A stretch of DNA of 63,897 nucleotides, counting the filler, from Stramenopiles sp. TOSAG23-2 (taxonomy: Eukaryota): the NCBI GenBank assembly GCA_900128395.1. It is 4 parts of 4 records of this genome, joined end to end, with 100 filler letters (N's around TTAATTAATTAA, not from the genome) between each part and the next. Parts side by side here need not be neighbours in the genome. Positions count along the whole stretch, not along the records: positions 1 to 15,991 come from LT649690.1; 3 more parts are not named here. One strand, written 5' to 3'. The translations under genes and the position numbers were made by a program. Position 1 is the stretch's first letter. Every line of letters starts with the position of its first letter. A model generated the notes under the pieces. That model searched no databases and was not told the DNA's origin. It saw only the letters and a program-made list of their open reading frames with translations. Of the stretch, positions 9,168 through 56,312 are shown piece after piece.

Positions 9168-10693
9168 ACTAATGTTCCTTTTGAATTATTTTTATTATTA
9201 TCAAACTTGTTTTTCTGTTGTTCATTAATATATATAAATGACAAGGTTTGCTTCTTTTTTCCATCTTTCTGTTTTATGTTTTTTTTTTATTTTTAGTCGT
9301 GTGTATTACCAGGATTACGTATAATTGGTGTGTTTTCTAAATATATTATTATTATTATTATACCTGGTATACTACTGCTGGACGACTGTAATAATATTAA
9401 TGCTATACTGTAAATTATAACACTATAATACAGCTATAATATTAAATATTGTTGGTTGCTTATATGCACACAGCACCATGCAGCTGGCCTTAGCTGGCAT
9501 CACAACAAGGTGCTGGTGCAAATTAAACACATCCTTCTTTTTCTTCATCCTAATCCTGGTATAATATAATAGTTCCTTGTGCTGTTTACCTGTTAATAAA
9601 TTTCTAGGAAACTTCGCAAAAATCGTAGCGGAATCTGGAATTTTAACTTTGCCAGCTGGGCCGGCTGGGCCAGCCCGGCCAGGTTTTAGATCGCTTTTCC
9701 TACAGTAAATTGTATAGATCTAGAATCTAGATATAGAGTTAGAGTAGAGTATCGTGTTAATGCTAATTGCTTTGTGATATTCCCATGCTAATGGAGGTTA
9801 CATTTTAAGCCATCAAGAGAGGAAAAAAAAAAGTGCAATTTAAATAGAGCAGAAAAATTAGAAAATTTCAGATTTGTTTTAGGCAATCCCTTAAAGAAAA
9901 CCTCTCCAAAACATGTTGCGGATGGAAAGATACATTTACATTTTTTACATTGTTATCAATTATAATATCATTAACTTGTATACTTTTACACCACCATCAA
10001 TATTCCTATATATCCAATAATATTTTAAGGGTCCAAATTCGATCAAAACTATCCTTAGTATATAAATCTGATAGGACCAAGTACAAATTCTAATTTTTGT
10101 GCTCCACCATTCTAAATGTTAAATGGATCGAATTTTCGTCCATTTAAGTGCGTTTCCTTTGCTGTGTGCTGTGTTCCAATTAGACCATTTGATAGACTCA
10201 TTTATATACAGCTTTAAGTATAAATAAGTGTCATAAATATCGTAAATATGCCTCGTTTAGACCACCCCATGGCAAAAAACGACTATTCTGCCAAATTACG
10301 TCAAAATATCCACGTATACGCACTATTACGGCAATATATTTTGGTATATTGTTATGTTATTTACCATATGATTAAATGTATTAATAATAGAATAAATTAT
10401 ATATAATCTAACCCTAACTCTAAAACGGTAAAAATATTCTATGTCACTTTTTCCTGAGTCTAATTTTACATATATATATATATATATCATAATCATTACA
10501 GTAAAAAATGATGCTTCAAAAACAAATATAATAAAAATGGGAATGAATGGCAAACTTAAAGTTACTCTATTCACGACTATAATTTTATTTTGAGATTTTT
10601 CTATATTTATAAACATTTTTTGGATAACAAGCGTTGACACCCTTGCATATATATATATATATTCTTGAAGGAAGAAAGGCGGATACGAAAATT

Positions 10694-11791
10694 ATGAATG
10701 TAAACTCAACTACAACTACTGAAACAGATTTGATAGACTTAAATCTTGATGAAGAGTTTCAGTTTGAAGATGACATACGTAATATCCTACTTAGTGACGA
10801 TTCAAATGATGTACAACATAGCGATGATAGGAAGCGTACTCAAACGCAACAGAAGCATGGTAGATCGACTAGCAGTAGCGATTTGCAGGAGAAAAAGAGA
10901 AGACGGAACGTCTATGAAAAACTTCGTACAAAAAAATTAAACGAAGAGTATGCTAATTTGGCAAATTTATTTCCAACTTCGTCAAATTTATCTAAAATTG
11001 AAACTATTAAGAGTGCCCAAGAAGCGATTAAAGACTTGAGAAGCAAGTTAGAAGTAGCAGAAGCACAAATCAATAAGTTCAATCGACACGGTAGTGATAA
11101 AACAGAACCGCTTAATGATAATATGATGGGGAATCATAATCCAGGCACTGTAAAAGGTTCAACTTTACCAATGGCGTGCTGTGTTGAAACTATTAAAAAT
11201 GCCCAAGTATCTATGAAAGAGTTGAAATCCAATTTAGAAGATGCACAAGCAGAACTTAGCAAATTCTATGGAATTGCAGGTGTTAAAACAGATTTACCTA
11301 ATAATAATAATGCAAACGTTGCTAATAATACAGACACGGTTGAAAACATATCTGAAGGGTTTGTTTTCAAACATTCAAGTTTCCCGATGTCGTTATTAGA
11401 TGTAAATGGTGTAGTAAAATTTGCCAATCCTAGTTTTCTAAAAGTGACTGGATTTACTCAAGCCGACGTTGATGACGGGAAAGTAGGTATGTTTTCAATG
11501 AGTTCAAAAGAAGATTTAGCACAAATGTATTTAAATGCAGGAGAATTAATTTGTGGTGGTAAGCAATTTTTGCATTTCCAAAAACGATGTAAGATTGCAA
11601 ATGAAAAGTATTGTACTTTCCGCGTATCTATGTCCACAATACGCTCTAATATCATTGTCAATAATAATAATAATGATGATAACCAGGATAACAACAACAA
11701 TAATAGTAATAGCAAGAAGAAGAAGGAAATAAAAGATACGGAATATTTTCATTGCATGATATTGCCAGATGAAGAATGTGATTCAAAGTGA
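10694..11791 (+). CDS. bHLH-PAS transcription factor
   Basis: Basic-HLH KKRRRNVYEKLRTKKLNEEYANLANLFP...SKIETIKSAQEAI; PAS fold FKHSSFPMSLLDVNGVVKFANPSFLKVTGFT; first ATG at 10694. Confidence 0.85.
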   Translation: MNVNSTTTTETDLIDLNLDEEFQFEDDIRNILLSDDSNDVQHSDDRKRTQTQQKHGRSTSSSDLQEKKRRRNVYEKLRTKKLNEEYANLANLFPTSSNLSKIETIKSAQEAIKDLRSKLEVAEAQINKFNRHGSDKTEPLNDNMMGNHNPGTVKGSTLPMACCVETIKNAQVSMKELKSNLEDAQAELSKFYGIAGVKTDLPNNNNANVANNTDTVENISEGFVFKHSSFPMSLLDVNGVVKFANPSFLKVTGFTQADVDDGKVGMFSMSSKEDLAQMYLNAGELICGGKQFLHFQKRCKIANEKYCTFRVSMSTIRSNIIVNNNNNDDNQDNNNNNSNSKKKKEIKDTEYFHCMILPDEECDSK

Positions 11792-12500
11792 TACTTATAT
11801 CTGAATCATACTACTTGATTAATGACATGCACTATATGTATCAGAAGAGATGGAAAATATGTTTGTATGTGTATAATATTCATGTAATAATATTGATAAT
11901 GAGTATCATAATAAAATATGTATGATATCAAATCATATATATATTAATATCATACGTATCACTTTTGTAAAAGATGAAAATATAATTTTGACACGCCCTG
12001 TATGTATTTTATGTAAAACAAAACTGGGGGCAATAGGTGGTGGTATTTAATTTTAAATGAGAAATAGCGAGAGCTAAGTTACTGTATCATTTTAGAGAGT
12101 TAGGGATTGTTGCATATGATATGAGTAAAAATGTAAAAAAATTATAAAATTAGAGTACACTTGAAACGCGCTTTATTATATTTTACCTGATACAGGAATT
12201 TAATCATATATAAATACATGAGTATGGTAACACTCGATTGAAAGTGTGTTGTATTTTTTTATATATATATTTTTTGAAATATGTTTTTGTATTTAAAATT
12301 AATTTTTTGGTCTTTTATCAAAATCCGGATTTATCCGGAGAGAGGACTTCCAGTCTGATAATTAAATTATTTATATTAATATATAACTTAGATTTTAACC
12401 ATCAATAATATTTTTTTTATTAACGTAAACTAATATTTTAATATTATAAAAAAATATACGTAGGCATATGCATACGATTTATTTTTTTCCTCTTTTTTCT

Positions 12501-13565
12501 TTACAACTCATATACACCACATTTCATGTTCGCAGGAAGTGAAATGTCTAATTTTTTTGGATAATTCGTTCCATCAAATTTTTCGTTCATTAACTTACAA
12601 AATTCTTCCTTCGATTTTGTTAGACGTTCATTAAATTGTTTTTCTTCTCCAACAGTTGTACATGTCCGTCCCTTGTAATCGTGCCCAGGATATAGAATTG
12701 TTTCGTCCGGTAATGAAAATATATTTTTCATAACGGAATCGTATAATGTATTTGGGTTACCACCTTGAAAATCGGTACGTCCGCAACCTCCAATTAAAAC
12801 AGTATCACCACAGAATGCATGTGAATTATTATTTAGTACATATGTCACGCAGCCTGGAGTATGTCCAGGGGTACTTTTCACAGACAAAACTTGTTCACCA
12901 AAATTAATAGTATCGCCATCACAAACGAAAATATCAGCGTCAGCTTCAGATGCTTTAGAGATAATACTTTGTACTTTTACAACAGTATCATCAGCAATGC
13001 GTTTATTTAATATTTGTTTCAATTTTCCACTACCAGTGATATGATCAGCATGAACGTGTGTATTTAATATATACAATAATTTTGCGTTTAATCCATTTAA
13101 AACATCTATATCACGCTCAACAGTTTCAATGACTGGATCGATTAATACTGCTTCTCTGCTCGATTTATCCATCACGATGTATGAATATGTAGAACTTTCT
13201 TTTTCATATAATTGTCGAATCAAAACGTTATTATCTTGGCAAAGCGATGACATGATATATGCAACATTTTTTCCATTCACCACGTCTGTGTAGCCCATGG
13301 CTTTTAATTTGTTTGCAGCAAACTGTGCTCTCCTTCCACGATAACAATATGTGACGATTGATTCACTTTTGTTGCTTGGTAACTGTTGTTCAATATTACC
13401 GTCGATAAATTCTGATTTTCCCACATCAAACTCTAAATTTATTGAATTTGGAACTATGTCGTAATTTTTTGCTCTCCCCACGTAGTCTTTCAAACGCACA
13501 TCAACAAAAGCTGGATTCACGATTTGTGCAAGCTTTGATTTATTTATAAATTTGGATGTAATCAT
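12501..13565 (-). CDS. ETHE1: Rhodanese-persulfide dioxygenase (ETHE1-like) fusion
   Basis: N-terminal rhodanese (FVDVR...IVTYCYRGRRA...LKAMGY); metallo-beta-lactamase motifs NTHVHADHITG, TPGHTPGC, GDT..IGGCGRTDFQGG, YPGHDY, EEKQFNERL, PANMKCG. Confidence 0.92.
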   Translation of the reverse strand: MITSKFINKSKLAQIVNPAFVDVRLKDYVGRAKNYDIVPNSINLEFDVGKSEFIDGNIEQQLPSNKSESIVTYCYRGRRAQFAANKLKAMGYTDVVNGKNVAYIMSSLCQDNNVLIRQLYEKESSTYSYIVMDKSSREAVLIDPVIETVERDIDVLNGLNAKLLYILNTHVHADHITGSGKLKQILNKRIADDTVVKVQSIISKASEADADIFVCDGDTINFGEQVLSVKSTPGHTPGCVTYVLNNNSHAFCGDTVLIGGCGRTDFQGGNPNTLYDSVMKNIFSLPDETILYPGHDYKGRTCTTVGEEKQFNERLTKSKEEFCKLMNEKFDGTNYPKKLDISLPANMKCGVYEL

Positions 13566-13626
13566 ATTATTTGCTAATAAATATTGATATGTATATATAT
13601 TAATATATATTATATATTAAGCTATT

Positions 13627-13818
13627 TCAATTCAATTTCGTAGAATATTTCTGTCTGAATTTTTTGCTTTTGAAATTTTTGCTTTTATCTTTCCTACGTT
13701 TCTTCTTCAACTTTTTAATTTCCGGTTTTTGAATCACTTGTGAATTGCTGAATAATTTACGGATATTGATATCTTTTTGTATATCTTCAGCTTTTCTTGA
13801 TGAAAGACAATCTCCCAT
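13627..13818 (-). CDS. Small basic ORF with an N-acylation-like start (MGDCLS); possibly a 5' exon of the rhodanese-ETHE1 gene
   Basis: G2/C4/S6 myristoylation-palmitoylation-like pattern and polybasic tail; ends ~60 bp upstream of the next ATG. Confidence 0.4.
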   Translation of the reverse strand: MGDCLSSRKAEDIQKDINIRKLFSNSQVIQKPEIKKLKKKRRKDKSKNFKSKKFRQKYSTKLN

Positions 13819-14667
13819 ACCTATTTAAATAAACAAACATTTGCCGTATTTTCTTTTTGGTATATACTGTATTTGTAGCACTGTATATCTTTTTTTTTTT
13901 TGTAGTGTATTTTTTTTTTTTATTCAGAAATGATTTTTGAGGGTCTTAGTCGTCTAGCCAGCATAGACATAGCATTACCAGAAGATTGAAACATCTGCAA
14001 GGTGCCAAGCCTACATATGCGTCCAGATGTACCTGAGTAGTCCAGATGTGGTCTTGATTGTGACGCTGTAGTTTTCCGCCAAATTTTAGGTAAATGAATC
14101 GAGTTTTATGGAAAATCAGAGTGTTTTACTATTTGTACCATAAAATAACAATCAAAAAATATATTGAAAAATATCCGGATAAGTGTTAAAATTAAGGTTT
14201 TACACGATTTTAAATAGGTCCCGGGACACAAATAGTAGGAACATTTAGGTACAAAATATTATACTAATTTTCTTCTTTTTTCTCTCTTTTCCTCTTTTTT
14301 CGTCCCATACACCTCGCTTTGCTCGGTCCGTTGTGTCCCGCTATTTGTATTTTTCGTATTTTAGATTTCAACTGCTCTTACTCTACCACAGATGGTGTTG
14401 CAGATGTACTGACTATATAATACTTATCGAGGTCCGCAGATACGATTATGATGCTATTTAGGTGCTATTAATAAAGGCTCTCTAACATACATGCAAAAAA
14501 AAAATATAATAAAAAACCTATTATAGGCACATAGTACTGTTTTAAAAAAAATCAAAAACAATACAAAACTAATATATCATACATACATACATACATACAT
14601 ATATCAAAGTTTCAAACAATAAAATAAAACAATAATATATATTCTAAACTTAAAAACAAGTAAGAAA

Positions 14668-15924
14668 ATGACAGACCTAGGCAATGATGAAATATCATTA
14701 CCACAGAAAGCGAATCAGGCAACTTTGATAAACACGTTGCCTTTTATAGCATCGTTAATCTTTGCGGCAATTATGTTTTCACAAGCCATTTACAATGCCG
14801 GACTTTATTTGATTCCTATAATGAGAGGACAATTTACTTTTCAAGTGAATATAATGTTGAAAACATTTTTAACGGCAGCTGCAACAAGCACATTGGTGTT
14901 TGCAATATTACATCTTCTTGGAAAAAACAAAAATTTGTTGTTGCGTGAGGAAAGACATGTAGAAACGAATAAAATTGGTATTGCTGGCTTAGTTATTGGT
15001 GGTGTACTTCTTGGTGCAGGTATGAATTTAGCTGGAGCATGTCCAGGTACGTTACCAGTACAAGTTGGTTCAGGTTTCTTTCCAAATGGATTATACACGA
15101 TATTGGGAGCAATGATCGGTGCCATGATATTTATTACATTGAAACCAAGTATCCAAAAAATTCAACAATATGGAGATTTTACAAAAGGGGGAGATAGCAA
15201 CATTAATGAAAGCGAAAGTGACGATGATGCGGCGTTAAATTATGATCAAGAGATTGTTGAAGAAAATAAACATCGATATACCATATACCAATGGACAGGT
15301 TATAATCATATTATTGTACGTTTGGCATTTTCAGCATTGTTCTTTAGTGCTGCGATTGTAACGGAAATATTATCACCGGGTATAGGTAACATTTCACCAA
15401 GCGTTAAAAAGGAAATTCTTGATGGATTATGGTCGCCATTTATATGCGGTCCAATGATTGGTATCTTACAACTTCCATTGATGTTATTTGGTGGGAAACA
15501 TCTTGGTTCAACACCTGCTTACATTACTACGACTAAACTCGTATTTAGCATACTACCATGGTTGCCTGAACGACTAAGAATGACAAAAATATCGCTCGAT
15601 TCTACGTGGGAATTTCTATATGTATATACCGCCGGTATAGTAACATTGATATTTGCTGCATTTATTTGGCCTTCATTCCAAATGTCCAATCGTTTCCCAT
15701 ATGATGGAAGTGTGGATATAACGATAGGTGAACAAATTATTGGTGGTATATTGATAGTTTTCGGTGCAAAATTAGCCTCTGGCTGTACCTCGGGGCATGG
15801 TATCAGTGGAATGGGTCATTTGCGTACGAAAAGTTTCATCGCTGTAGCATCGATGTTTGCTGGTGGCATTCTTATAAATATATATTATATCCAATATGAT
15901 ATTATATTATATTTATATATATGA
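14668..15924 (+). CDS. YeeE/YedE (TsuA-like) thiosulfate/sulfur transporter, two fused half-domains
   Basis: About 9 TM helices; GGVLLGAGMNLAGACPGT and GGILIVFGAKLASGCTSGHGISG are the two Cys-containing family motifs. Confidence 0.9.
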   Translation: MTDLGNDEISLPQKANQATLINTLPFIASLIFAAIMFSQAIYNAGLYLIPIMRGQFTFQVNIMLKTFLTAAATSTLVFAILHLLGKNKNLLLREERHVETNKIGIAGLVIGGVLLGAGMNLAGACPGTLPVQVGSGFFPNGLYTILGAMIGAMIFITLKPSIQKIQQYGDFTKGGDSNINESESDDDAALNYDQEIVEENKHRYTIYQWTGYNHIIVRLAFSALFFSAAIVTEILSPGIGNISPSVKKEILDGLWSPFICGPMIGILQLPLMLFGGKHLGSTPAYITTTKLVFSILPWLPERLRMTKISLDSTWEFLYVYTAGIVTLIFAAFIWPSFQMSNRFPYDGSVDITIGEQIIGGILIVFGAKLASGCTSGHGISGMGHLRTKSFIAVASMFAGGILINIYYIQYDIILYLYI

Positions 15925-15991
15925 GTAAGAACGCACGGAAGGATAGAAACCTACTTGTGCTTGTAGAGTATTAGTTTGCAGAGGTGCATTA

Positions 15992-16091
15992 NNNNNNNNN
16001 NNNNNNNNNNNNNNNNNNNNNNNNNNNNNNNNNNNTTAATTAATTAANNNNNNNNNNNNNNNNNNNNNNNNNNNNNNNNNNNNNNNNNNNN
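15992..16091. other. Artificial contig spacer
   Basis: Ns flanking TTAATTAATTAA. Confidence 0.99.
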
Positions 16092-26343: not shown

Positions 26344-28998
26344 TTACTTATAGGCTATCTCCATCCGTCTCACTCGTTGATACCCGTTTGATCCATCTCT
26401 TTTATATTGTTGTATAGCTTTTAATTGTGATTTCATATTATCACTAAGTTGATTATTATCTAGGTGCAAGTACTTTAATGTATTGTTTATTTTTAATCCA
26501 TCAATAATACTTTGTATTCCACTATCATCAGTAATATTATTATAATATAGGTTCAATATCATTAATGTGTTGTTTGTTTTTAATGCTTCACCAATACTTT
26601 GTACATCAGTAATATTATTATTACCTAGGTACAATATTGTTAATGTATTGTTTGTTTTTAATCCTTCACCAATACTTTGTACATGCAAGTACTTTAATGT
26701 ATTGTTTATTTTTAATCCATCAATAATACTTTGTATTCCACTATCATCAGTAATATTATTATAATATAGGTTCAATATCATTAATGTGTTGTTTGTTTTT
26801 AATGCTTCACCAATACTTTGTACATCAGTAATATTATTATTACATAGGGACAATGTCTTTAATGTATTGTTTCTTTTTAACAATTCACCAATAGCTAATG
26901 CATCCTCATCCGTGAGATTCTTTCCACTCAAATCCACTTTCGCCTTCCCCCCATCAAATTCTTTTTCCCATTTAATGTATGCAGCACTTTTCTTTGTCAC
27001 ATTTGCAACTTCTTCGTTTTGTAGAAATTTTTTCTCTCCTGAAGATCGCGATGCAACCCTTGGACTATGTGATTCATCGTCTAGTTTAACTTGTTTCTTG
27101 ATCGATTTCAACATATTCGTGGACTTTTTATTACTTTGACTCTTTATTTGATTAACATTTTCTACATCTTCTCCATTTTTTTTGATAGTATTATTATCAT
27201 CATCAACTTCTTCGTTTTGTAGAAATTTTTTCTCTCCTGAAGATCGCGATGCAACCCTTGGACTATGTGATTCATCGTCTAGTTTAACTTGTTTCTTGAT
27301 CGATTTCAACATATTCGTGGACTTTTTATTACTTTGACTCTTTATTTGATTAACATTTTCTACATCTTCTCCATTTTTTTTGATAGTATTATTATCATCA
27401 TCATTATTATTATTATTATTACCGTTTTCTCCCCCATCTTTATCTTGTTGTTGCATCATCGATATTGTTCCTCTCAAACTTTTGCTTAAATTCTCAAACG
27501 TTGGTCTTTCCTCTGTTTTTTGTGACCAACAACCTGTAATAAATAACTTTTCATTATCTTCCAGATTTATTATATCAGCAATAGGTGGACGTTCAGGTTC
27601 AGAATCTTCAAACATTAGCGCCTCCATGTGCATTGCCAAAATTTCATTTTCAGGTACGCCAGCAAATGCAATTTTACCAGAAAATAATTCCCAGCTCAAT
27701 ATCCCAAAACTGTAAACATCAGCTGCTTTTGAATAGTTTGCTCCACCCATGCGCTTCGATTTGAAAAGTTCTGGCGCTTTATATTGTATTGTCCCTCGTT
27801 CTCCTTTTGTTGACCCAGCAGACATTGTTTTAATTTTTGACAATCCAAAATCTGATATCCAAGGTACATCATCTTTACTAATTAAAATATTTTCAGGTTT
27901 TAGATCTAAATGTAATATGTTACGACTATGCAGCATTGCCATTCCATTGCATATGCCACATGCAAGATGGAATCGTTTTTCGTTTGACATAGTTGGCTCA
28001 TTGTCAAATAAATCTCTTAAATTTCCTTTTTCTGCAAATGCCAATATAAGCATAGGTGGATCTGAACATATGTTGAACATTTGTACAATATTTTCATGTC
28101 TACAAGAGCTTAATGTTTTGAATTCATTCTGAAGTAATAATTTTGCTTGTTCACTCTCTTTTTTGCTCGTATGTGCATGAAGTTTTTTAATAGCAACATT
28201 CATACCATATACAATACCTTTGTGTACATCTGCAAAAGCACCTCTGCCGATATAATCACGAATTTCAATTGAATTAGCGTCAATTTCCCATTTATTTTGC
28301 TCGCTCGTTATTTTTTCTAATTTCTTTTCCATTTCTTCTATTTTCATCTTGTTAGCTTCCAGACGCAATTTCTCTAAATTTTCTTCCCTGCGTTTCTTCT
28401 CAGCTACAAGACGAGCCTTTTCTATCTCATGTTCTTTGCGTTCAGCTTCAAGACGTGCCTTTTGTTTCTCCAGTTTATCACGTTCTCGTTTTTCCTCAAG
28501 AGTTACAACATTACCATTCTTTAAAAGGATTTTAGGCCTATCCTTTAAAATTGAGTCAACACTTGTTTTCCAAAGGAAAGGATTCACCCTAGAAATTTCG
28601 GTGAAATTTATTTTCCCTATACCTTTCAAGTAACCTTTATTGTTTGGGCAACGATTAATGATACTACCAATTTGTCCTTTTTGTTGTATATCAATAACCA
28701 CTTGTATTGGTTTGTGATATTCGACCGCCCATTCCAATTCTTTCACGCAAAATGGTCTAGTAAAGTATTCTGGGGACATTATAATTAATACAATTTCAGA
28801 AAGGATAATTCCTTCTTTCATTGCATCCTCGTCTCGCGCAACCATTTTTACATCCAACCAGCATGTTTTGCCGTGATCCCTTACCGAGTAAAAAATGTCA
28901 TTTGCAAAAAGGCCTGAATCGGCTTGAACATGTGATATAAAGTAATTCCATTTTCCAGGTTCGTTTAGTAAGGTACTTGTTGTTGTTAGTGATGCCAT
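26344..28998 (-). CDS. TIR - coiled coil - TKL-like protein kinase - LRR (RNI/NLRC3-like) protein
   Basis: TIR: YFISHVQ...CWLD...SPEYFTRPFCVKELEWA; kinase: IGRGAFADV, VAIK, HLDLKPEN, DFG, APE; LRR: LKTNNTLxxLxLxxNNITD repeats. Confidence 0.92.
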   Translation of the reverse strand: MASLTTTSTLLNEPGKWNYFISHVQADSGLFANDIFYSVRDHGKTCWLDVKMVARDEDAMKEGIILSEIVLIIMSPEYFTRPFCVKELEWAVEYHKPIQVVIDIQQKGQIGSIINRCPNNKGYLKGIGKINFTEISRVNPFLWKTSVDSILKDRPKILLKNGNVVTLEEKRERDKLEKQKARLEAERKEHEIEKARLVAEKKRREENLEKLRLEANKMKIEEMEKKLEKITSEQNKWEIDANSIEIRDYIGRGAFADVHKGIVYGMNVAIKKLHAHTSKKESEQAKLLLQNEFKTLSSCRHENIVQMFNICSDPPMLILAFAEKGNLRDLFDNEPTMSNEKRFHLACGICNGMAMLHSRNILHLDLKPENILISKDDVPWISDFGLSKIKTMSAGSTKGERGTIQYKAPELFKSKRMGGANYSKAADVYSFGILSWELFSGKIAFAGVPENEILAMHMEALMFEDSEPERPPIADIINLEDNEKLFITGCWSQKTEERPTFENLSKSLRGTISMMQQQDKDGGENGNNNNNNDDDNNTIKKNGEDVENVNQIKSQSNKKSTNMLKSIKKQVKLDDESHSPRVASRSSGEKKFLQNEEVDDDNNTIKKNGEDVENVNQIKSQSNKKSTNMLKSIKKQVKLDDESHSPRVASRSSGEKKFLQNEEVANVTKKSAAYIKWEKEFDGGKAKVDLSGKNLTDEDALAIGELLKRNNTLKTLSLCNNNITDVQSIGEALKTNNTLMILNLYYNNITDDSGIQSIIDGLKINNTLKYLHVQSIGEGLKTNNTLTILYLGNNNITDVQSIGEALKTNNTLMILNLYYNNITDDSGIQSIIDGLKINNTLKYLHLDNNQLSDNMKSQLKAIQQYKRDGSNGYQRVRRMEIAYK
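27006..27404. repeat. Exact 198-bp in-frame tandem duplication in the kinase-LRR linker
   Basis: DDDNNTIKKNGEDV...KKFLQNEEV appears twice; copies start at 27006 and 27204. Confidence 0.95.
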
Positions 28999-29071
28999 TC
29001 TTAAATTTACGTTTTTTAATATACTTTCGTGTGTATAGAGATAAATTATTTATTCAATATTAAAGATAACG

Positions 29072-32029: not shown

Positions 32030-32129
32030 NNNNNNNNNNNNNNNNNNNNNNNNNNNNNNNNNNNNNNNNNNNNTTAATTAATTAANNNNNNNNNNNNNNN
32101 NNNNNNNNNNNNNNNNNNNNNNNNNNNNN
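32030..32129. other. Artificial contig spacer
   Basis: Ns flanking TTAATTAATTAA. Confidence 0.99.
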
Positions 32130-48018: not shown

Positions 48019-48118
48019 NNNNNNNNNNNNNNNNNNNNNNNNNNNNNNNNNNNNNNNNNNNNTTAATTAATTAANNNNNNNNNNNNNNNNNNNNNNNNNN
48101 NNNNNNNNNNNNNNNNNN
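48019..48118. other. Artificial contig spacer
   Basis: Ns flanking TTAATTAATTAA. Confidence 0.99.
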
Positions 48119-48402: not shown

Positions 48403-49034
48403 ATGCGATTATTTCATCTTAAAATTATAAATTTCCTCCTATCGCTGAATAATATACTAAGAAGTACACCTATGCATTAAGCACACCAGACAATTTCCAC
48501 ACGATAATAGTATATACATATAACAATACGTACAAGTCACAAGATATTATATGGTAACAGCGACAGCCAATACATACTACAACAATATCGTATACATCGA
48601 TACAGCACAACACTATCACACACTATTTATGAATGGGTAGTACGGTAGTACTATACTTAATACTGTACAACAACGAATACGATATTACACTACGCCTCGA
48701 CTACAATCAGAAAACCAATATCCCCTATGATATTAAGCATTTGATATCAAACTGCCAAAATAAAAACCCTCCTTAACTCCAACGAATTCCATCGCTGTGC
48801 CACAAACACCAATCCAGACCTAGTGCAGGGCTCTCGCCGTACGGCAATTTTTTTTTTGGCTATTTATGCACATATAATTATATTGAAATACATTGTATAT
48901 TTTATTCAACATAGTAAACTATGTGGATAGAACATAACAATAACAATTCCCCAACCATTGCCAATTAATACATTGACAACCTGTTAATATATATATATAT
49001 ATATATATTGCCAGGGAAAAATAATAGTAAGAGC

Positions 49035-52000
49035 ATGAAAACAGATAAAATTGCAGTCGCAATGCATCAACAACAATCACAAGTAAATCACACTTCAAAA
49101 ACACCAAGACGTGTCTCAGATAAAGGTGGTTCCTGGGAAGAGCATATCGACCCTGGCACTAATAAAATATATTATCACAATAAAATTACAAGTGTAAGTC
49201 AATGGGACAAACCACAAGGATATAATTTTCAAAATGCGATAAATCCAATTCATACTGTTACATCAATACCTCGACGAGTATCAAATAGTGATCAATGGGA
49301 AGAACATTTAGATAAAAATAGTGGCAAAATTTATTATCATAATAAAAGGACTAATATTACGCAATGGGAAAAACCGGCTAATTCTAATTTTGTTTCAACA
49401 AATAATATTGTTAATTCTCCAAGAACACCAAGAAAGACGTTTGAAATGGAGCAGGCAAATCCAATGAAACAGAACAGACAAAATAGGCAAAGTCGTAATT
49501 CTTGGTCGAATTTGAATAATAATGATATGCATGGCAGAAAAATTGACAAAGTGAAAGTGACGGAAAAGAAATTTTTTTATGCAAAAATGATTGGTATTTG
49601 CTGTTGTATATTTGTTATTTGCGGTGTAATTCTTAGTATTTTATTGGTTACTGCTGGTAAACGCGGTGGAAAAGGTGGTGTTCGTCCTTCTTCTGGTGGT
49701 GATCATCCAATTACAACGACTTTACCACCTAGTAATTCAGTAACTACAGCAATTCCGACACAACCACTTCCTGTTTCCAATCCAACACGTTTAGTTGGAC
49801 AGGAGTTAAAAATCAATGGTTTATCATTGCAACAAGTAAATGATAATTTAAATGCGATAAAAATTGGTATTGCAAAATCATTAAATGTTGCAAACGATGA
49901 TGTTATTATTGTTTCTGTCAGTGTTGGTAATAGAAGAAGAAGAGAAAGACGACAACGTGCAAGACGTCGTGGTAGAATGTTATTGCAGCAAAAGGTCAAT
50001 CTTTTTTACAAGGTAAAAGTTTTAAATGATAATGCAGTAACAAAAATCATGGAAAAAATGAAATCGAATTCTGTTAAAGCTAATATTGTTGTTGAAATGG
50101 TCAAAGCTATACCAAATGTTAGTAAAGATGATATATCATTCTCTTCCACTGCACCTAGTAGTGAAGTTTATAATTCAGTTACTGCAACAACTCCACCACC
50201 AAAAGAAAATTTTAATTGGAGAGAATGTGGAAATGAAACGGTACCAAAAAATCAGCCAAGTGGGTGGCCAAAAGATGTTTTGCCTGGGATATCTACATTA
50301 CCACAAAGTACCGCAAATATGATTTTGAGTTTGAAACGAATATCCGCAATAGATTGCTCTTCTGTTCCTGTTGCAAGATCATATGATGGAAATGTATGGG
50401 AAGGTACTTATCCAGAACCACATGATCCAAGCGAATGCGATACAAACACAAAAGAATGTAAAATTGAAACAAGCAATACAAATGTTGCCTATCGTATTGA
50501 TGCATATGTGCAATTAAATGACGAACTTCGGACGAAAAATGAGACAATATCGCGGTTTCTTTTGCAGGCAACATATGGGGCTTCTCGAAATGACATTGGT
50601 GATTTCATTCAATCCCATGGAATGGAAGTAACATCATCAACAGTATCTAGTTACTTAGATAAGCAAATGAATATAATTTCACCAACTTTGTTAAGGGAAC
50701 ATTTTAGGAAACGAACGAATCCAAGAACACCTGTGAATAGCGCTGCTGGGGTTAAGAGGCACATATGTGAATCTGGTAGTCGTTTCCATCGCTTTTCTTT
50801 CAATCAACTAGATTTACAAAAAACATTGAATATTAGTACCTTAAATGAAAATACGGGTACATATGAATTAGCCATCGATGGTATACTTCGCACAGAGGTA
50901 GCTAGTTTAACAAGTATTAGTGGCGGCACAATATTGGCTGGCAATAATTATGTTATTTGTAAAGTTGAAGAATGGACTGGAACCGGCCGAGTTGTTTTTT
51001 ATAATAGTGATAATAAATGTGCTGGAAACGATTTGAACATTGTCAATCCGTTGGTAAACTTCACAAATCCAAATTTGGATGTAACACAGGTATTTGGGAC
51101 AAATGATGTTGATATTTACGATTTACAACTTCCTGATCAAGATGCCATTTTAATTACAAAATATAAATCTACTTGCAATGAGAAACAACTACATGGAGTT
51201 GGTTTCATCAAATTATCTGGAAGAGGAAGCGACAAAACATTTTATAAGCATGACCCACGTTTAAAATTACTAGATAATAGTTTTGAAAAGCCTGTAAATG
51301 TTTCGGCGTTTGAAGATACTGCAATGATGTGCCCAAGTGTACCTAAAACATTTTTAAACCGTGATAAATGCGTCCGACTAGCAAAAGCATGTTCTCCATT
51401 ACAATTTACAAGCGGTTTGCTACCATTAAATAGCTCAAATTTACGATTATGGTACACGGCAAATCAACGGCATGTACATTATTTAACTGGATTGCGATTA
51501 GAATCACCATACGATACCAAAGTTTGTGAAATTAATGGATATACCCGATGGAAAAAAATAAATAATGGACCATGTAGTGGTGGTATAACCCCAATTTTAG
51601 TGGGAACGACGACAAATGATACTATCGTGAACGCCTTAGTTGCTTCCACGGATTCCAATCCATTTATACGAGATATTAATGTATATTGGAAAAATAATGC
51701 TGGTTGCGATAAGACATTAAATATTGATGTTGGTGGCGTAGGTGCAAAAGTTGAAGCAAGTAATATATGTTGGCAACATGTTCATGAACATGAATACAAC
51801 GTTTACGATTTTACATATTGGACCATACAACACGATGGTAATAAAATTGCAAAACAATTTGGAAGGCCTAATCCAATTACTAAATTTGCAATTGATGGAC
51901 GTGTTGACTTTGTTTTCCCAGGACACCATGAAATGTTACGCTGGAAACAAAAAGTAAACAAATTTATACCATACGTTGGTAGATACGGTGATTCTGTCAA

Positions 52001-55000
52001 CTTTGAAAGTTTAAATACAGAAGTACAGACATATGAATTAGCAAAAATAGCCAATGCTGTTTCAAGTGATGGGTCAGATGGATATGAATCGTGCGGTTCT
52101 CCAGGAGAAATAAAAAATGAGCCACATTACGGCCATTTATATAGATTTCCAAGTGCACGTTTGAATCTAGGAATTGATTTTAACAATGAAATTGATTTTC
52201 CCCATTATAGAAATGAAGGAAAGCATATGGTGTGGCTGAATGTGGTGCTAAAATCTCCTGATCAATTAAGGCAAAAAGTTGCATGGGCGCTTTCTCAAAT
52301 TTTGGTCATAAGTGAAAGCGGTTTAAATGGAAAAGACGATGAAGTTGAAAATTGGATTACATACTATGATAATTTTGTAAGAAATGCATTTGGCAGCTAT
52401 AGAACGGTTTTAAAGGAAGTTACATATTCACCAATGATGGGTCAATATTTGACATATATGCAAAATAAAGCGTTTAAATTTGCCGGGACGTTTCCAGATG
52501 AAAACTATGCTCGAGAAATCATGCAGTTGTTTACTATTGGATTGTGGAAATTGAATATTGATGGCACATACAAACTTGACAGTAATGGAGAGAAACAAGC
52601 CACATATACGAATGATGATATTGTAGCATTTGCAAGAATTTGGACAGGATTTGACAGGTCATTGCGACGTAGTAATTTAGAACAACAAAATGGCATAGGC
52701 TCTGGTAATTTTTTTGATCCAATGCAGATAAAAGCAGAGTGGAGAGATTTTTTCCCAAAACGAGCTTTGGATAAAGGTTTTATTGGGGATGGGTATCCAC
52801 TTTGTGCGGATCTACCATCCAAAAATGAATTCTTAATGCCAGGTGCTACATATGTTAATACAGGTGCACATTCTGATGAAGGTGAATGGTATGATAGAGA
52901 TGCTGCTTCTGATCGTGGAGTTCGGGAACAATTTACGCCGTCAAATACAGGCAGTAGTCAATTATTTAATACATTATGTAGTCGTATAAGTTCTACAGAG
53001 CCATGTCAGTTTCCGGACATTATTAAAGTAACGAACCCAATACAATGCAATGGCGATGAATGTGATATAGATTTTATTCGTGTTGTGAAGTTAGTTGATC
53101 TTGTATCAAATAAAGTGAATTACTACACTTATCAACGACAGCCATGTGTTCGTTTGACATTTTTCAATGAAGGAAAGGTGACCGTAGATGTAAAAAGTCT
53201 ACAGGAAAGTGTTAACACCCCGTCTCGGATAAATCGCGTATATCAATGTGCCAATCCCCATGCAAAGGCTGCTGGAGCTACTTGTTGCAATTCCGATGGA
53301 ACTGTACAAGAGCTTCCGTACAAAAGAAGCGATAACCCAACAGCTTGCAATTTTGCATTGGAATTTATGTCTTATAATACTACTAAAAATAGATGCAAAG
53401 CATTAGGCTGGCAAGTTTGTGATACTGTGAAAAAACTAACTTGGACCCCTGCATTTAAAAAAACTTGTGGTGTATATCAACATAGCTGGACAACAAGTAC
53501 ATGTAAATATGAAATTCAAGTGCGGCCATCTGGGTATATTAACATACTTGACATACCGCGTTATAGATCAGAGTATGCTTTGAATAATGATAATCTGATG
53601 TTGCTATGGTGGAAAAACAATGCCTTTCCAACTGTCCAACAAAATAGCTGTGGAAGCGGCTGTACAGTTTCCGGCACTAGCTGCCGTTGCAATATTACAG
53701 TGGTTGAATCCATTGGTTTTTCATCAACAACAAATGGTGCTTTGCCAACTGTGGCAGAAATTGAAGATACATTACACATTGGTGCATATTCACCATCTCA
53801 ATTTTACAATATCATTGATTCCGGAACATATACATTGTGCACGACAACAAAATGTAATGATCATTATACAAACACTAAAGTGCAAATATATTTACATTCT
53901 GGATCAGGACAGTCATTTGATACAATGACCATTTTCAAATTGCCAGCTAAGTTACCTGGTGGAAAGTTGCGATATCTTATGAACAAAGTATCTACAGTCC
54001 ATGTCGGAGAAAATTTTCAATTCCGTAATCCTCCTAATTTTATGCCAAGTTTAGGGGAAACATATACATATCGCGGGTCCGGATTTTCTAGTCGTTTTCA
54101 CGTAATTGAAGCAACACAAGAGGTTGATGCTTTGCTAGATCATGTATTTGAGCACCCTAACACAGCCCCTTTTATTTCACATCGATTGATCCAACGACTC
54201 GTCACAAGTAATCCTAGCCCACGATATGTAAAAGCTGTTTCCACTGCATTTATCAATGGTAAAACATCCGACGGTCATGTATATAGTGGTAAATATGGTG
54301 ATATTGGAGCTGCAGTGGCAGAAATATTGCTAGACCAAGAAGCAAGGTCAACTACGTTGGATTCTGATGCGTTGGCAGGAAGACTACGGGAGCCCCTTTT
54401 GAAAGTAATACATGTTATGAAAGCAATGGAATATAAATCAAAAGATGCAAGGGAAGTGAATTTATACGATATGGATAGAAAAGTTGGGCAAGCATCTTTT
54501 GCATCACCAACTGTATTTAACTTTTTCTTGCCAGAATTTACACCACCTGGACCAATATACAACGCAAATTTAGTTAGTCCAGAGTCTCAATTGAGTACAA
54601 CACCACTTTTAATTGGATTTCTAAACGGAATGGAGTCGTTGATATCAAATGGTCTAACTAATTGTAATTCAGGTTTCGGAGATTTTACTGCCAAACCAAA
54701 ACGCGCTTGCGGATCGACTTCACTCAAGCTCAATACGAATGACGGGTCAATGCAATATATACCAAGTGTCGAAGCACTCCAAAAAGGAAGTATAGGAGTG
54801 ATTGGTGAGATAGATGTATTGTTGACTACAGGTCGTTTGAATGAAAATGATCGAAATGCATTAATAAAAACATACGACGAGACTTTGACTTCTGGGGGGC
54901 AAACACAAGATGCGGTGCATGCAGCTTTACGGTTGTTGGTGATGACTTCTGAATTTCATACTACTACAATAAATAGAATAACAAAATCACTTCGACCTAT

Positions 55001-56312
55001 TCCACCGGAGCAAACGTCACAAAACCGACCGTACAAAGCTATCATTGTTTTATTCTTGGCTGGTGCTGCAGATTCGTTTAATATGCTAGTACCTCACTCA
55101 GAATGTGCAAATTCGCATGATTTGCATCAAGAGTATTTAGATGTAAGAACAAATGTTGCTCTTTCGAAAAGTTCGTTGTTGGAAATTGATGTTCCTGCTA
55201 ATTCTCAACCGTGTAATAAATTTGGTATCCATCCAAGCTTATCAGTATTAAAAACAGAATACGATGCTGGAAATGCTAATTTTATTGCAAATATGGGTGC
55301 CTTAGTAGAACCACTAACAAAAGCAGAATATAATGCCAAATCAAAGCGAGTGCCACCTAGTTTATTTGCACATAATGTAATGCAACGGGCAATGCATACT
55401 GTCCATGCGCAATATGCATCATCCAATGGAGTGCTTGGCCGTGTTGTAAAAGCCATTTCAAAGGAACAAAAAGATACTTCAAATAATGTTGTCCCACCTT
55501 ATAGCAGTTATATGTATAGTTTATCTGGCAATCAGCGAATGTTGGAAGGTGCTGCTCCGAGTCATGTTCCTTTCATAATTGATAAAAGACATGGAGTAGT
55601 CCGGTATTCAAAATATAGCACTATGAAGACTAAAATTGAAAATATATCAAGGAGTGAATCAGAAAGTATTTTTGCTGAAACGTTTAGTGCAAACCTGGAA
55701 ACTTCATTGAGGCAAACTGAAAATTTAGGCGCGTTATTGAAGGATGTCACTTTAACAACAACCTTTAGCGATGAAGATCAAGTCAGCCAACAATTGAATC
55801 AAGTCTCCAAGCTCATAAAATTGCGACAACAACTAAATTCTGAACGCGACGTTTTTATTATTACGCATGGTGGGTATGATACGCACAATGATGTCGGTGA
55901 CGTTTTTAAGGGAAAGTTAGATCAAATCAACGCTGGCCTAGATTCATTTGTGAAAGAAATGAAAGATCAAAATATATATGAAAATGTTGTTTTGGTTACG
56001 ACTAGTGACTTTGGGAGAACATTAACGTCTAACGGCCAAGGCACCGATCATGCTTGGGGAGGTAACTATTTCACATTAGGTGGTAGTGTCAAAGGCAGTA
56101 AAATACTTGGCCAATACCCTGAAAAATTGGGAGATGATGGTTTGTTGAATATTGGAAGAGGGCGTGTTTTACCCACAACAAGCTGGGAAGCGATGTGGAA
56201 TGGATTGGCTGAATGGTTCGGTATTGTACCTGATGAAATGGATAAAGTATTACCAAATAAGAAAAACTTTCCTGCAGATCATTTATTTACAAAGGATGAC
56301 TTGTTTAAATGA
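49035..56312 (+). CDS. Type II membrane protein: 2 WW domains - TM - Cys-rich ectodomain with DUF1800 and DUF1501
   Basis: WEEHID...KIYYHNK...SQWDKP twice; TM IGICCCIFVICGVILSILLV; DUF1800 motifs RFLLQATYG, DQLRQKVAWALSQI, PDENYAREIMQLFTIGL, HPNTAPFI, REPLL; DUF1501 motifs LFLAGAADSFN, GYDTH, SDFGRTL...GTDHAWGG. Confidence 0.9.
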   Translation: MKTDKIAVAMHQQQSQVNHTSKTPRRVSDKGGSWEEHIDPGTNKIYYHNKITSVSQWDKPQGYNFQNAINPIHTVTSIPRRVSNSDQWEEHLDKNSGKIYYHNKRTNITQWEKPANSNFVSTNNIVNSPRTPRKTFEMEQANPMKQNRQNRQSRNSWSNLNNNDMHGRKIDKVKVTEKKFFYAKMIGICCCIFVICGVILSILLVTAGKRGGKGGVRPSSGGDHPITTTLPPSNSVTTAIPTQPLPVSNPTRLVGQELKINGLSLQQVNDNLNAIKIGIAKSLNVANDDVIIVSVSVGNRRRRERRQRARRRGRMLLQQKVNLFYKVKVLNDNAVTKIMEKMKSNSVKANIVVEMVKAIPNVSKDDISFSSTAPSSEVYNSVTATTPPPKENFNWRECGNETVPKNQPSGWPKDVLPGISTLPQSTANMILSLKRISAIDCSSVPVARSYDGNVWEGTYPEPHDPSECDTNTKECKIETSNTNVAYRIDAYVQLNDELRTKNETISRFLLQATYGASRNDIGDFIQSHGMEVTSSTVSSYLDKQMNIISPTLLREHFRKRTNPRTPVNSAAGVKRHICESGSRFHRFSFNQLDLQKTLNISTLNENTGTYELAIDGILRTEVASLTSISGGTILAGNNYVICKVEEWTGTGRVVFYNSDNKCAGNDLNIVNPLVNFTNPNLDVTQVFGTNDVDIYDLQLPDQDAILITKYKSTCNEKQLHGVGFIKLSGRGSDKTFYKHDPRLKLLDNSFEKPVNVSAFEDTAMMCPSVPKTFLNRDKCVRLAKACSPLQFTSGLLPLNSSNLRLWYTANQRHVHYLTGLRLESPYDTKVCEINGYTRWKKINNGPCSGGITPILVGTTTNDTIVNALVASTDSNPFIRDINVYWKNNAGCDKTLNIDVGGVGAKVEASNICWQHVHEHEYNVYDFTYWTIQHDGNKIAKQFGRPNPITKFAIDGRVDFVFPGHHEMLRWKQKVNKFIPYVGRYGDSVNFESLNTEVQTYELAKIANAVSSDGSDGYESCGSPGEIKNEPHYGHLYRFPSARLNLGIDFNNEIDFPHYRNEGKHMVWLNVVLKSPDQLRQKVAWALSQILVISESGLNGKDDEVENWITYYDNFVRNAFGSYRTVLKEVTYSPMMGQYLTYMQNKAFKFAGTFPDENYAREIMQLFTIGLWKLNIDGTYKLDSNGEKQATYTNDDIVAFARIWTGFDRSLRRSNLEQQNGIGSGNFFDPMQIKAEWRDFFPKRALDKGFIGDGYPLCADLPSKNEFLMPGATYVNTGAHSDEGEWYDRDAASDRGVREQFTPSNTGSSQLFNTLCSRISSTEPCQFPDIIKVTNPIQCNGDECDIDFIRVVKLVDLVSNKVNYYTYQRQPCVRLTFFNEGKVTVDVKSLQESVNTPSRINRVYQCANPHAKAAGATCCNSDGTVQELPYKRSDNPTACNFALEFMSYNTTKNRCKALGWQVCDTVKKLTWTPAFKKTCGVYQHSWTTSTCKYEIQVRPSGYINILDIPRYRSEYALNNDNLMLLWWKNNAFPTVQQNSCGSGCTVSGTSCRCNITVVESIGFSSTTNGALPTVAEIEDTLHIGAYSPSQFYNIIDSGTYTLCTTTKCNDHYTNTKVQIYLHSGSGQSFDTMTIFKLPAKLPGGKLRYLMNKVSTVHVGENFQFRNPPNFMPSLGETYTYRGSGFSSRFHVIEATQEVDALLDHVFEHPNTAPFISHRLIQRLVTSNPSPRYVKAVSTAFINGKTSDGHVYSGKYGDIGAAVAEILLDQEARSTTLDSDALAGRLREPLLKVIHVMKAMEYKSKDAREVNLYDMDRKVGQASFASPTVFNFFLPEFTPPGPIYNANLVSPESQLSTTPLLIGFLNGMESLISNGLTNCNSGFGDFTAKPKRACGSTSLKLNTNDGSMQYIPSVEALQKGSIGVIGEIDVLLTTGRLNENDRNALIKTYDETLTSGGQTQDAVHAALRLLVMTSEFHTTTINRITKSLRPIPPEQTSQNRPYKAIIVLFLAGAADSFNMLVPHSECANSHDLHQEYLDVRTNVALSKSSLLEIDVPANSQPCNKFGIHPSLSVLKTEYDAGNANFIANMGALVEPLTKAEYNAKSKRVPPSLFAHNVMQRAMHTVHAQYASSNGVLGRVVKAISKEQKDTSNNVVPPYSSYMYSLSGNQRMLEGAAPSHVPFIIDKRHGVVRYSKYSTMKTKIENISRSESESIFAETFSANLETSLRQTENLGALLKDVTLTTTFSDEDQVSQQLNQVSKLIKLRQQLNSERDVFIITHGGYDTHNDVGDVFKGKLDQINAGLDSFVKEMKDQNIYENVVLVTTSDFGRTLTSNGQGTDHAWGGNYFTLGGSVKGSKILGQYPEKLGDDGLLNIGRGRVLPTTSWEAMWNGLAEWFGIVPDEMDKVLPNKKNFPADHLFTKDDLFK

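Follow-up and report, generated by a model that had tools for sequence, protein, structure and literature searches.

A divergent gene pair of a rhodanese–persulfide dioxygenase fusion and a YeeE/YedE-fold membrane protein, a possible sulfur-handling unit of an uncultured marine stramenopile

Persulfide dioxygenase, rhodanese and a YeeE-family channel are already known from bacteria as a system, and the presence of the same three functions at one locus of a protist raises the question of whether the two genes that encode them there work together, and how such a pair came about. The locus lies in a 63,897-nucleotide stretch of Stramenopiles sp. TOSAG23-2 (GCA_900128395.1; the whole stretch is called the window below), on the first of its contigs, where a gene for a rhodanese fused to an ETHE1-type persulfide dioxygenase stands head-to-head with a gene for a YeeE/YedE-fold membrane protein. 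A preliminary description of the locus had named these three functions, including the YeeE/YedE transporter family, and our annotation agrees. We read the two as divergent nuclear genes free of introns, which belong to a heterotrophic marine stramenopile similar to the uncultured marine stramenopile (MAST) lineages and form a functional sulfur-handling pair, a reading to which we attach about even confidence. It draws on the anatomy and residues of both proteins, the expression of both genes, the linkage of these functions in bacteria, the literature, the lack of another sulfur acceptor on the contig, two consecutive gene identifiers (g4910 and g4911) in a eukaryotic dataset, and a co-location on a fungal contig (L014).

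The fusion gene occupies 12501..13565 on the minus strand (354 aa; stop codon 12501-12503) and the YeeE gene 14668..15924 on the plus strand (418 aa), both identified as open reading frames (ORFs) with Pfam domains. They diverge across 1102 bp (13566-14667), and contig 1 ends 67 bp past the YeeE stop codon, with a run of N from 15992; two diverging ORFs, a gap of ~1.1 kb and a contig end after 67 bp had all been described before, and every coordinate proved correct. The stretch from 12301 to 15990 is wholly or partly present in 20 of the 24 public runs listed (12 studies; 7 runs are RNA), from which we compared one independent, small DNA run (X3), two RNA runs of one study (X9 and X11) and one RNA run of another study that was primed with oligo-dT (X20). 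Two of the listed runs are marked as possible sources of this DNA. Run X3 spans the whole stretch with no differences listed, and both genes are transcribed in all three RNA runs compared, which are marine metatranscriptomes. Contig depth cannot rank genes, and depth figures were therefore not used to compare expression. Fusion-gene RNA contigs cover 12486-13816 (X11, the whole ORF without a gap) and 12613-13816 (X9), and those of the YeeE gene cover 14618-15531 (X9), 14775-15961 (X11), and 14635-14968 plus 15030-15888 (X20). In each of the three RNA runs the contigs are colinear with the DNA and free of joints, which bears out the earlier view of both genes as intronless.

The two fusion-gene RNA contigs both end at 13816, which delimits a probable 5' untranslated leader of ~250 nt (13566..13816, minus strand); the DNA contig of X3 continues to 13852 where the RNA contigs stop, a weak hint that the transcript starts near 13816. 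On the other side, RNA contigs starting at 14618 (X9) and 14635 (X20) give a minimum 5' leader for the YeeE mRNA (14618..14667, plus strand). The spacer between the transcripts (13817..14617), presumed to hold the promoter region of both genes, is covered by no long RNA contig in any of the three RNA runs. The locus yields two separate monocistronic, divergent mRNAs whose ends lie ~800 bp apart (13816 vs 14618), i.e., a divergent pair and not an operon, and the label "operon-like" used in the preliminary description had to be given up, as the RNAs are separate and the 1.1-kb spacer is among the longer intergenic distances of the window.

Some further observations concern the spacer and leader. 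Short RNA pieces occur at 14225-14340, both ends running into unrelated sequence, which suggests a short element also found in other transcripts or organisms. A repeat scan found no copy of the spacer elsewhere in the window, and repeat scans gave only low-complexity matches. A sigma-70 promoter scan of the spacer region scored no better than shuffled sequence, and such a signal would have no bearing on a eukaryote. The fusion leader contains a lysine-rich ORF of 63 aa (13627-13818, minus strand, beginning MGDCLSS) with no Pfam or family match; one run carries a 12-nt deletion at 13635, and we do not claim the ORF as a gene because its ATG coincides with the RNA contig end in two runs.

That the host is a eukaryote, as was first proposed, follows from the domains of the neighboring genes, the presence of both genes in the oligo-dT RNA library X20, and a fusion relative that bears the EukProt name 'Stramenopile-MAST_4_protein_3605'. 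By Pfam, nearby ORFs carry bHLH-PAS, BSD, synaptobrevin, ankyrin/EF-hand, RING, cathepsin L-like, P450 and Npa1 domains, and several of the surrounding ORFs are very long and uninterrupted. Because that named relative is 53% identical to the fusion, the host is most likely an uncultured marine stramenopile related to MAST-4 but distinct from it.

Turning to the fusion enzyme, Pfam assigned Rhodanese (PF00581) to residues 17-97 at 33.6 bits (gathering cutoff 22.2) and Lactamase_B to residues 127-295 (E 3.2e-21), and the AlphaFold2 model scored 90.5 in predicted local distance difference (pLDDT) and 0.89 in predicted template modeling (pTM). The rhodanese domain comprises residues 1-112 (13230..13565, minus strand) with the catalytic-loop cysteine Cys74 (CYRGRRA, codon 13344-13346), a site occupied by cysteine in all 13 aligned family members that have the domain. 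Cys74 stands at the head of the six-residue active-site loop expected of this type of rhodanese. Tested as a single-domain (GlpE/TSTD1-like) rhodanese, the domain showed both a score above the Pfam gathering cutoff and the catalytic loop cysteine. The remainder, residues 113-354 (12504..13229, minus strand), is the dioxygenase domain with HVHADH at 170-175, H235, D254, R263 and C349. These residues, H170, H172, D174, H175, H235, D254 and R263 among them, do not vary across 29 aligned sequences, and the domain was also aligned to 4chl residue by residue. The HxHxDH, PGH and GD motifs would supply the iron-binding His/His/Asp, and R263 would correspond to the arginine of GCGRTDFQ, in the roles known from ETHE1 enzymes. 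A phmmer search of PDB sequences retrieved human ETHE1 (4chl, E 9e-74), Arabidopsis ETHE1 (2gcu, E 1.9e-70) and BpPRF (5ve3, E 3.7e-65), and Foldseek placed the fusion model on 4chl with E 6e-34, a template modeling (TM) score of 0.94 and a root-mean-square deviation of 1.5. By fold, motifs and tree, the C-terminal domain is thus assigned to the ETHE1-type (type I) persulfide dioxygenases, and its activity is predicted accordingly from model and sequence.

In 11 of 13 aligned fusion proteins the rhodanese fold begins at about residue 5, close behind the N-terminus, so that a cleavable mitochondrial presequence is unlikely; the enzyme would then be cytosolic. It thereby resembles mitochondrial ETHE1 (4chl, 2gcu) in its dioxygenase domain, which is 48-51% identical over structure alignments and belongs to the same eukaryotic clade, but differs in its N-terminal rhodanese, in having no room for a cleavable presequence, and in the YeeE-family gene adjoining it. 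Likewise, it shares with BpPRF of Burkholderia phytofirmans (5ve3-5ve5) and CstB of Staphylococcus aureus (3r2u) the union of a dioxygenase and a catalytic-cysteine rhodanese in one polypeptide, whereas the protist rhodanese comes first and the Foldseek match to 5ve3 is limited to the dioxygenase part (246 columns). The N-terminal order occurs in the 12 best clusters (51-99% identity, 97-100% coverage) and in the distant cluster P0044, making 13 MAST-like clusters; a Pfam scan of 23 homologues gave 10 with rhodanese-dioxygenase order, 5 with dioxygenase-rhodanese order and 8 with the dioxygenase only. Searching 1.84 billion representatives with the rhodanese domain returned 95 matches at E<=0.001, among which no further N-terminal rhodanese-dioxygenase family was seen; the nearest relatives of this rhodanese outside its own cluster (P0438, P0442, P0446) are proteins of 863-1654 aa with 6-9 tandem rhodanese stretches.

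The second gene encodes a membrane protein in which Pfam Sulf_transp (PF04143) spans residues 51-401 at 112.7 bits (cutoff 27). Its AlphaFold2 model (pLDDT 85.9, pTM 0.87) is a single chain with a central helix and an acidic loop. No PDB entry matched the single sequence at E<=0.01; with a profile built from 47 relatives, the Spirochaeta thermophila YeeE structure 6leo was matched over its full length (E 4.9e-26). Foldseek returned only YeeE structures as significant (8k1r, 8j4c, 6leo, 6lep; E ~1e-6, probability 1.00, TM 0.60-0.75 by target length), the next match standing at E 0.19. The S. thermophila protein has three conserved pore cysteines, C22, C91 and C293, as given in the accessible parts of PMC11582611 and PMC11073785. 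Profile alignment to 6leo pairs C91 with Cys125 (codon 15040-15042, plus strand) and C293 with Cys373 (15784-15786), both invariant across the 47 sequences, and pairs C22 with valine or tyrosine. A further cysteine, Cys260 (15445-15447), is common to the MAST-like proteins, g4911, one choanoflagellate and one sponge, and not to the whole clade. The NCBIfam TsuA model NF052577 scored 31.2 bits against a cutoff of 400, and NF041049 gave no listed match. The protein thus has the YeeE fold without the defining features of TsuA, and by these features it is not a TsuA-type thiosulfate importer, the YeeE type to which the preliminary description had referred. Near its end, the protein carries a variable tail rich in tyrosine and isoleucine (15890-15924), with a 24-nt deletion at 15890 in one RNA contig, and members of its cluster measure 410, 412 or 418 aa.

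With C125 and C373 as one invariant pore cysteine in each half, the protist protein looks like two halves of the YedE1E2/PmpAB type joined in one chain, a type described in the available parts of PMC11582611 as having one cysteine per half. The resemblance to YedE1E2 of Cupriavidus pinatubonensis and to the Acinetobacter baumannii yedE1-yedE2-pdo2 operon (PMC10812762, in part) extends to a persulfide dioxygenase gene adjoining the channel, and bacterial halves of ~171 aa match the protist C-terminal half at 29-38% identity. Unlike YedE1E2, the protist halves form one 418-aa chain of a eukaryotic clade that branches apart from the bacterial halves, and the enzyme beside it is a rhodanese fusion of a eukaryotic ETHE1, encoded divergently and transcribed separately rather than in an operon. 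With YeeE(TsuA)-YeeD(TsuB) of E. coli and S. thermophila (6leo, 8j4c, 8k1r; PMC11073785, in part) it shares the fold, the second and third pore cysteines and the concept of a cysteine-carrying acceptor in the cytoplasm whose gene adjoins that of the channel; unlike there, the outer cysteine is replaced by valine or tyrosine in the eukaryotic profile, and the neighbor is a rhodanese-dioxygenase fusion with no TusA/YeeD gene on the contig.

Bacterial precedent for the pairing is extensive. Retrieval with the YeeE profile gave 80 metagenome loci among the matches listed, only 56 of them with at least 1500 nt upstream, and a dioxygenase-like gene adjoins the YeeE-family gene, of the bacterial kind nearest to the protist clade, in 43 of these 80 listed loci, on the same strand in all 43 and, in 41, upstream of the YeeE gene at 670-1522 nt. 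Conversely, a YeeE-family gene lies no more than 5 kb away in 24 of 80 bacterial genome loci that encode an ETHE1-type dioxygenase. In the two bacterial loci annotated (L051 6691-11077 and L036 6724-11098), a transporter resembling CitMHS and Na-sulfate symporters is followed by a 483-aa dioxygenase-rhodanese-rhodanese (CstB-like) and then by two YeeE halves, the C-terminal-like half first. These counts, together with the accessible parts of PMC10812762, confirm the clustering of dioxygenase, rhodanese and YeeE in bacteria that had been cited at the outset, and the protist pair comprises the same three functions as the bacterial cassette. There, YedE1E2 is described as importing zero-valent sulfur coupled to the dioxygenase (PMC10812762, in part), and YeeE as needing the cytoplasmic cysteine-bearing sulfur acceptor YeeD (PMC11073785, in part).

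Taken as a functional pair, the two proteins would cooperate as follows. The YeeE-fold channel of the eukaryotic clade would pass sulfane-sulfur species (zero-valent sulfur/polysulfide or thiosulfate) across the membrane, presumably inward; on the cytoplasmic side, the rhodanese of the fusion would take up the sulfane sulfur on Cys74, handed over by the channel, and pass the sulfur to glutathione, and the attached ETHE1-type Fe(II) dioxygenase would oxidize the resulting glutathione persulfide to sulfite. The rhodanese would thereby play the acceptor role that YeeD has in bacteria. A TusA/SirA domain was found in none of the 24 ATG-initiated ORFs of 50-109 aa on the contig nor in the longer ORFs scanned, with the downstream side ending at 67 bp, and the fused rhodanese is therefore the sole sulfur acceptor encoded nearby. 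A fused rhodanese can also feed the dioxygenase from thiosulfate, as reported in the available parts of PMC9163753. A complex prediction of YeeE with the rhodanese domain, run without prepared alignments, scored 0.04 and 0.27, short of the mark of 0.34, and counts neither way. In a bolder form, the fused rhodanese would replace YeeD outright as the "fourth cysteine", the channel handing sulfur or thiosulfate directly to Cys74 in a group translocation coupled to oxidation, and selection would have assembled and kept the cluster, converging on the bacterial cassette, in abundant ocean grazers (MAST); this stronger version we consider unlikely.

The same parts could also be arranged to run outward. 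Persulfide formed intracellularly, as prey is digested or by mitochondrial oxidation of sulfide, would be oxidized to sulfite, the rhodanese would join sulfite and persulfide to thiosulfate, and YeeE would release thiosulfate or sulfite, a scheme of export and detoxification that we regard as possible and rather improbable. It gains from the setting, as the organism is present in oxic surface-ocean metagenomes and external reduced sulfur is scarce in the oxic surface ocean. The chemistry has precedent, since fused rhodaneses of the CstB type can make thiosulfate from the dioxygenase product (PMC12934615 and PMC9163753, both in part), and bacterial dioxygenases cluster with extra anion transporters, such as the CitMHS/Na-sulfate-symporter-like gene of L051 and L036. 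Yet the characterized YeeE-family systems, TsuA (PMC11073785) and YedE1E2 (PMC10812762), are described as importers, and the portions of the literature consulted on them mention no YeeE-family exporter.

Whether the two genes belong together at all depends in part on whether their pairing recurs in eukaryotes, which the preliminary description had raised and for which the evidence points both ways. In EukProt, g4910.t1 (a stand-alone dioxygenase, P0018, in whose cluster one member measures 251 aa and has no rhodanese) and g4911.t1 (a YeeE protein of cluster P0124) have consecutive identifiers, from which adjacency is inferred, and the two branch next to the window's proteins in their respective trees. 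The identifiers noted were g4910, g822 and g472 for the dioxygenase and g4911, g1232 and g11626 for YeeE, so that one of nine pairings is consecutive; by our own estimate, consecutive identifiers arise by chance about once per several hundred trials. In addition, a fungal contig with Fungal_trans and PQ-loop domains (L014) carries a type II dioxygenase 770 bp downstream of a YeeE-like gene, with 9g8t and 4ysk as its best solved relatives, and this is a second eukaryotic co-location, with a different type of dioxygenase. On that contig (9980-14063) and on a second fungus-like metagenome contig (L001, 7694-10978), the YeeE-like gene also lies beside a DUF1275 membrane-protein gene that is 49% identical between the two contigs.

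Other searches for synteny came back empty. A metagenome scan listed, among its matches, bacterial and fungal loci at 24-36% identity sharing the motif GCTSGHGI and none of the relatives at 51-67%, and a scan of viral contigs for synteny in relatives gave nothing. Among the clusters compared, no dioxygenase and YeeE pair lies on contigs of equal size (the near misses 7505/7506 and 7651/7653 were not counted), and a 71870-bp contig with g4910-like fragments held no fragment found to be close to g4911.

Several findings weigh against the functional pair. Guillardia theta has its ETHE1 and YeeE genes on different scaffolds (lengths 467170 vs 662034), so that linkage is not general in eukaryotes, and the proposed conservation has a single, indirect hint in its favor, the identifiers g4910/g4911. 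The dioxygenase g822 and the YeeE protein g1232, if from one dataset, are far apart. Close YeeE relatives (51-98% identity) were found in just 3 clusters, as opposed to 12 for the fusion, and many fusion-bearing relatives may thus lack the channel, or the channel may be unsampled. Of the three cysteines that S. thermophila YeeE requires, the first (C22) has no counterpart. Finally, with ~800 bp between the RNA contig ends, the spacer is not a tight bidirectional promoter.

Chance adjacency, in which the neighboring genes have nothing to do with each other functionally and serve separate pathways, would account for the two separate transcripts, for a spacer of ordinary length for the window, for the unlinked genes of Guillardia, and for metagenome loci listed only at <=36% identity, with no direct synteny from close relatives. 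Still, we doubt it: the probability of one particular neighbor is ~2/N, with N of the order of 10^4 genes (our own estimate), the pairing recurs in the g4910/g4911 identifiers and in the fungal contig L014, and the same pairing is the rule in bacteria.

Selenium handling, by analogy with YedE/FdhT-type selenium transport and a rhodanese, has behind it a weak NCBIfam match of the channel to the selenium-metabolism protein YedE/FdhT and the fact that rhodaneses also act on selenium. It is very improbable nonetheless, as the match (18.6 bits) lies far under the cutoff of 350, the partner is a persulfide dioxygenase with all ETHE1 motifs, and no selenium-related gene was found among the contig ORFs scanned.

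Where the pair came from can be read from the descent of its parts, and the question of domain origin posed in the preliminary description receives the same answer for both genes. A careful tree of the dioxygenase domain (63 rows, 229 columns; 38 eukaryotic and 25 bacterial type I rows) separates the eukaryotic rows, the window enzyme among them, from every bacterial one by a branch with support 100/99. Within the eukaryotes, a 21-row clade (99/98) unites the N-terminal fusions, two chlorarachniophytes, a group that comprises the stramenopile Triparma and the C-terminal fusions, and P0018 (g4910). The 12 N-terminal fusion rows are joined in a quick tree (Shimodaira–Hasegawa-like approximate likelihood ratio test, SH-aLRT, 90), and the chlorarachniophyte pair is inserted among them in the careful tree (64/85); an approximately unbiased test did not reject their monophyly (p 0.371). 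The window dioxygenase is 55-61% identical to animal and algal ETHE1 versus 41-51% to the best 80 bacterial loci. In 60 of those 80 loci, all of type I, the protein is extended by 99 or more residues at its C-terminus, and Pfam scanning of 14 of them found a C-terminal rhodanese in 12, an N-terminal flavoprotein domain in 2 and an N-terminal rhodanese in none. As an aside, two cyanobacterial loci (L120 3417-5795 and L145 3504-5810) encode an ETHE1-type dioxygenase behind an FAD/NAD(P)-binding domain of ~500 aa, in proteins of 793 and 769 aa. It follows from the eukaryotic ETHE1 clade and the reversed domain order that the fusion arose within eukaryotes on a vertically inherited ETHE1.

For the channel, the closest matches are three MAST-like clusters at 98, 67 and 51% identity, followed by other eukaryotes, namely g4911, choanoflagellates, Guillardia, Amphimedon, a bivalve, a bryozoan, Thecamonas, chytrids and numerous fungi of the Xylariales. 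In a quick tree built from the C-terminal half (53 rows), the window protein falls in a 19-row clade with non-fungal eukaryotes (SH-aLRT 98), in which g4911 is sister to the MAST-like trio (88), and the bacterial halves, including those beside dioxygenase genes, form separate clades; one 176-aa "half" lies inside the eukaryotic clade. The channel thus belongs to a pan-eukaryotic YeeE clade and both genes are of eukaryotic descent, and the pair consequently formed within eukaryotes rather than being inherited or transferred as a bacterial operon. A bacterial sulfide-detoxification operon, horizontally acquired and since split into two eukaryotic genes, would explain the functions shared with bacterial dioxygenase-rhodanese and YeeE cassettes, but it is close to refuted by the ETHE1 clade and its identities, by the separate position of the dioxygenase-adjoining bacterial halves, and by the reversed order of the domains.

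As for the surroundings, the window consists of 4 contigs of descending size (15991, 15938, 15889 and 15779 bp) joined by linkers of the form N44-TTAATTAATTAA-N44 at 15992-16091, 32030-32129 and 48019-48118, and features on two sides of a linker are not genomic neighbors. The gene pair lies on contig 1 (1-15991), and everything past 15991 is unrelated contig. The 3' flank of the YeeE gene (15925..15991, plus strand) runs into a high-copy repeat in its last ~60 bases (15932-15990), which ends the contig; there, the summed depth in DNA run X3 reaches 20260 (last bin) versus 4569 in the gene, and many loose contig ends of that run begin at 15932-15952. On the other side, a bHLH-PAS transcription factor gene (10634-11791, plus strand) is convergent with the fusion gene, 710 bp from its 3' end. 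A scan of the window for tRNA genes found none, and Rfam gave no match over 12000-16000 at E<=0.1.

Two large ORFs on the unrelated contigs are recorded as observations in their own right. At 26347-29049 (minus strand), an ORF of 901 aa unites a TIR domain, a protein kinase domain and leucine-rich repeats. At 48969-56309 (plus strand), a single ORF of 2447 aa combines WW domains with DUF1800 and DUF1501, a fusion unusual for a eukaryote; DUF1800 and DUF1501 form a domain pair typical of Planctomycetes-type bacteria.

In the full-text literature, we found no paper on a eukaryotic ETHE1-rhodanese fusion and no functional study of a eukaryotic YeeE/YedE-family protein, in a coverage that leaves subscription journals largely outside; the available parts of PMC11073785 note that eukaryotic YeeE homologues exist. 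Four features of this locus are new: its setting is eukaryotic, its ETHE1, itself of eukaryotic descent, carries the domains in reversed order, its YeeE protein belongs to a eukaryotic clade of single chains, and the two genes form a divergent pair.

Standing beside an enzyme of well-understood chemistry, the YeeE-family protein of this locus offers a concrete, testable hypothesis for a whole eukaryotic clade, which also spans choanoflagellates, sponges, bivalves, cryptophytes and fungi. The probable lack of a mitochondrial presequence in this ETHE1 hints that persulfide is oxidized in the cytosol of these uncultured flagellates, which rank among the major grazers of marine bacteria. If the linkage is conserved, the pair would represent a metabolic gene cluster that came together within a protist genome out of genes with a eukaryotic ancestry.

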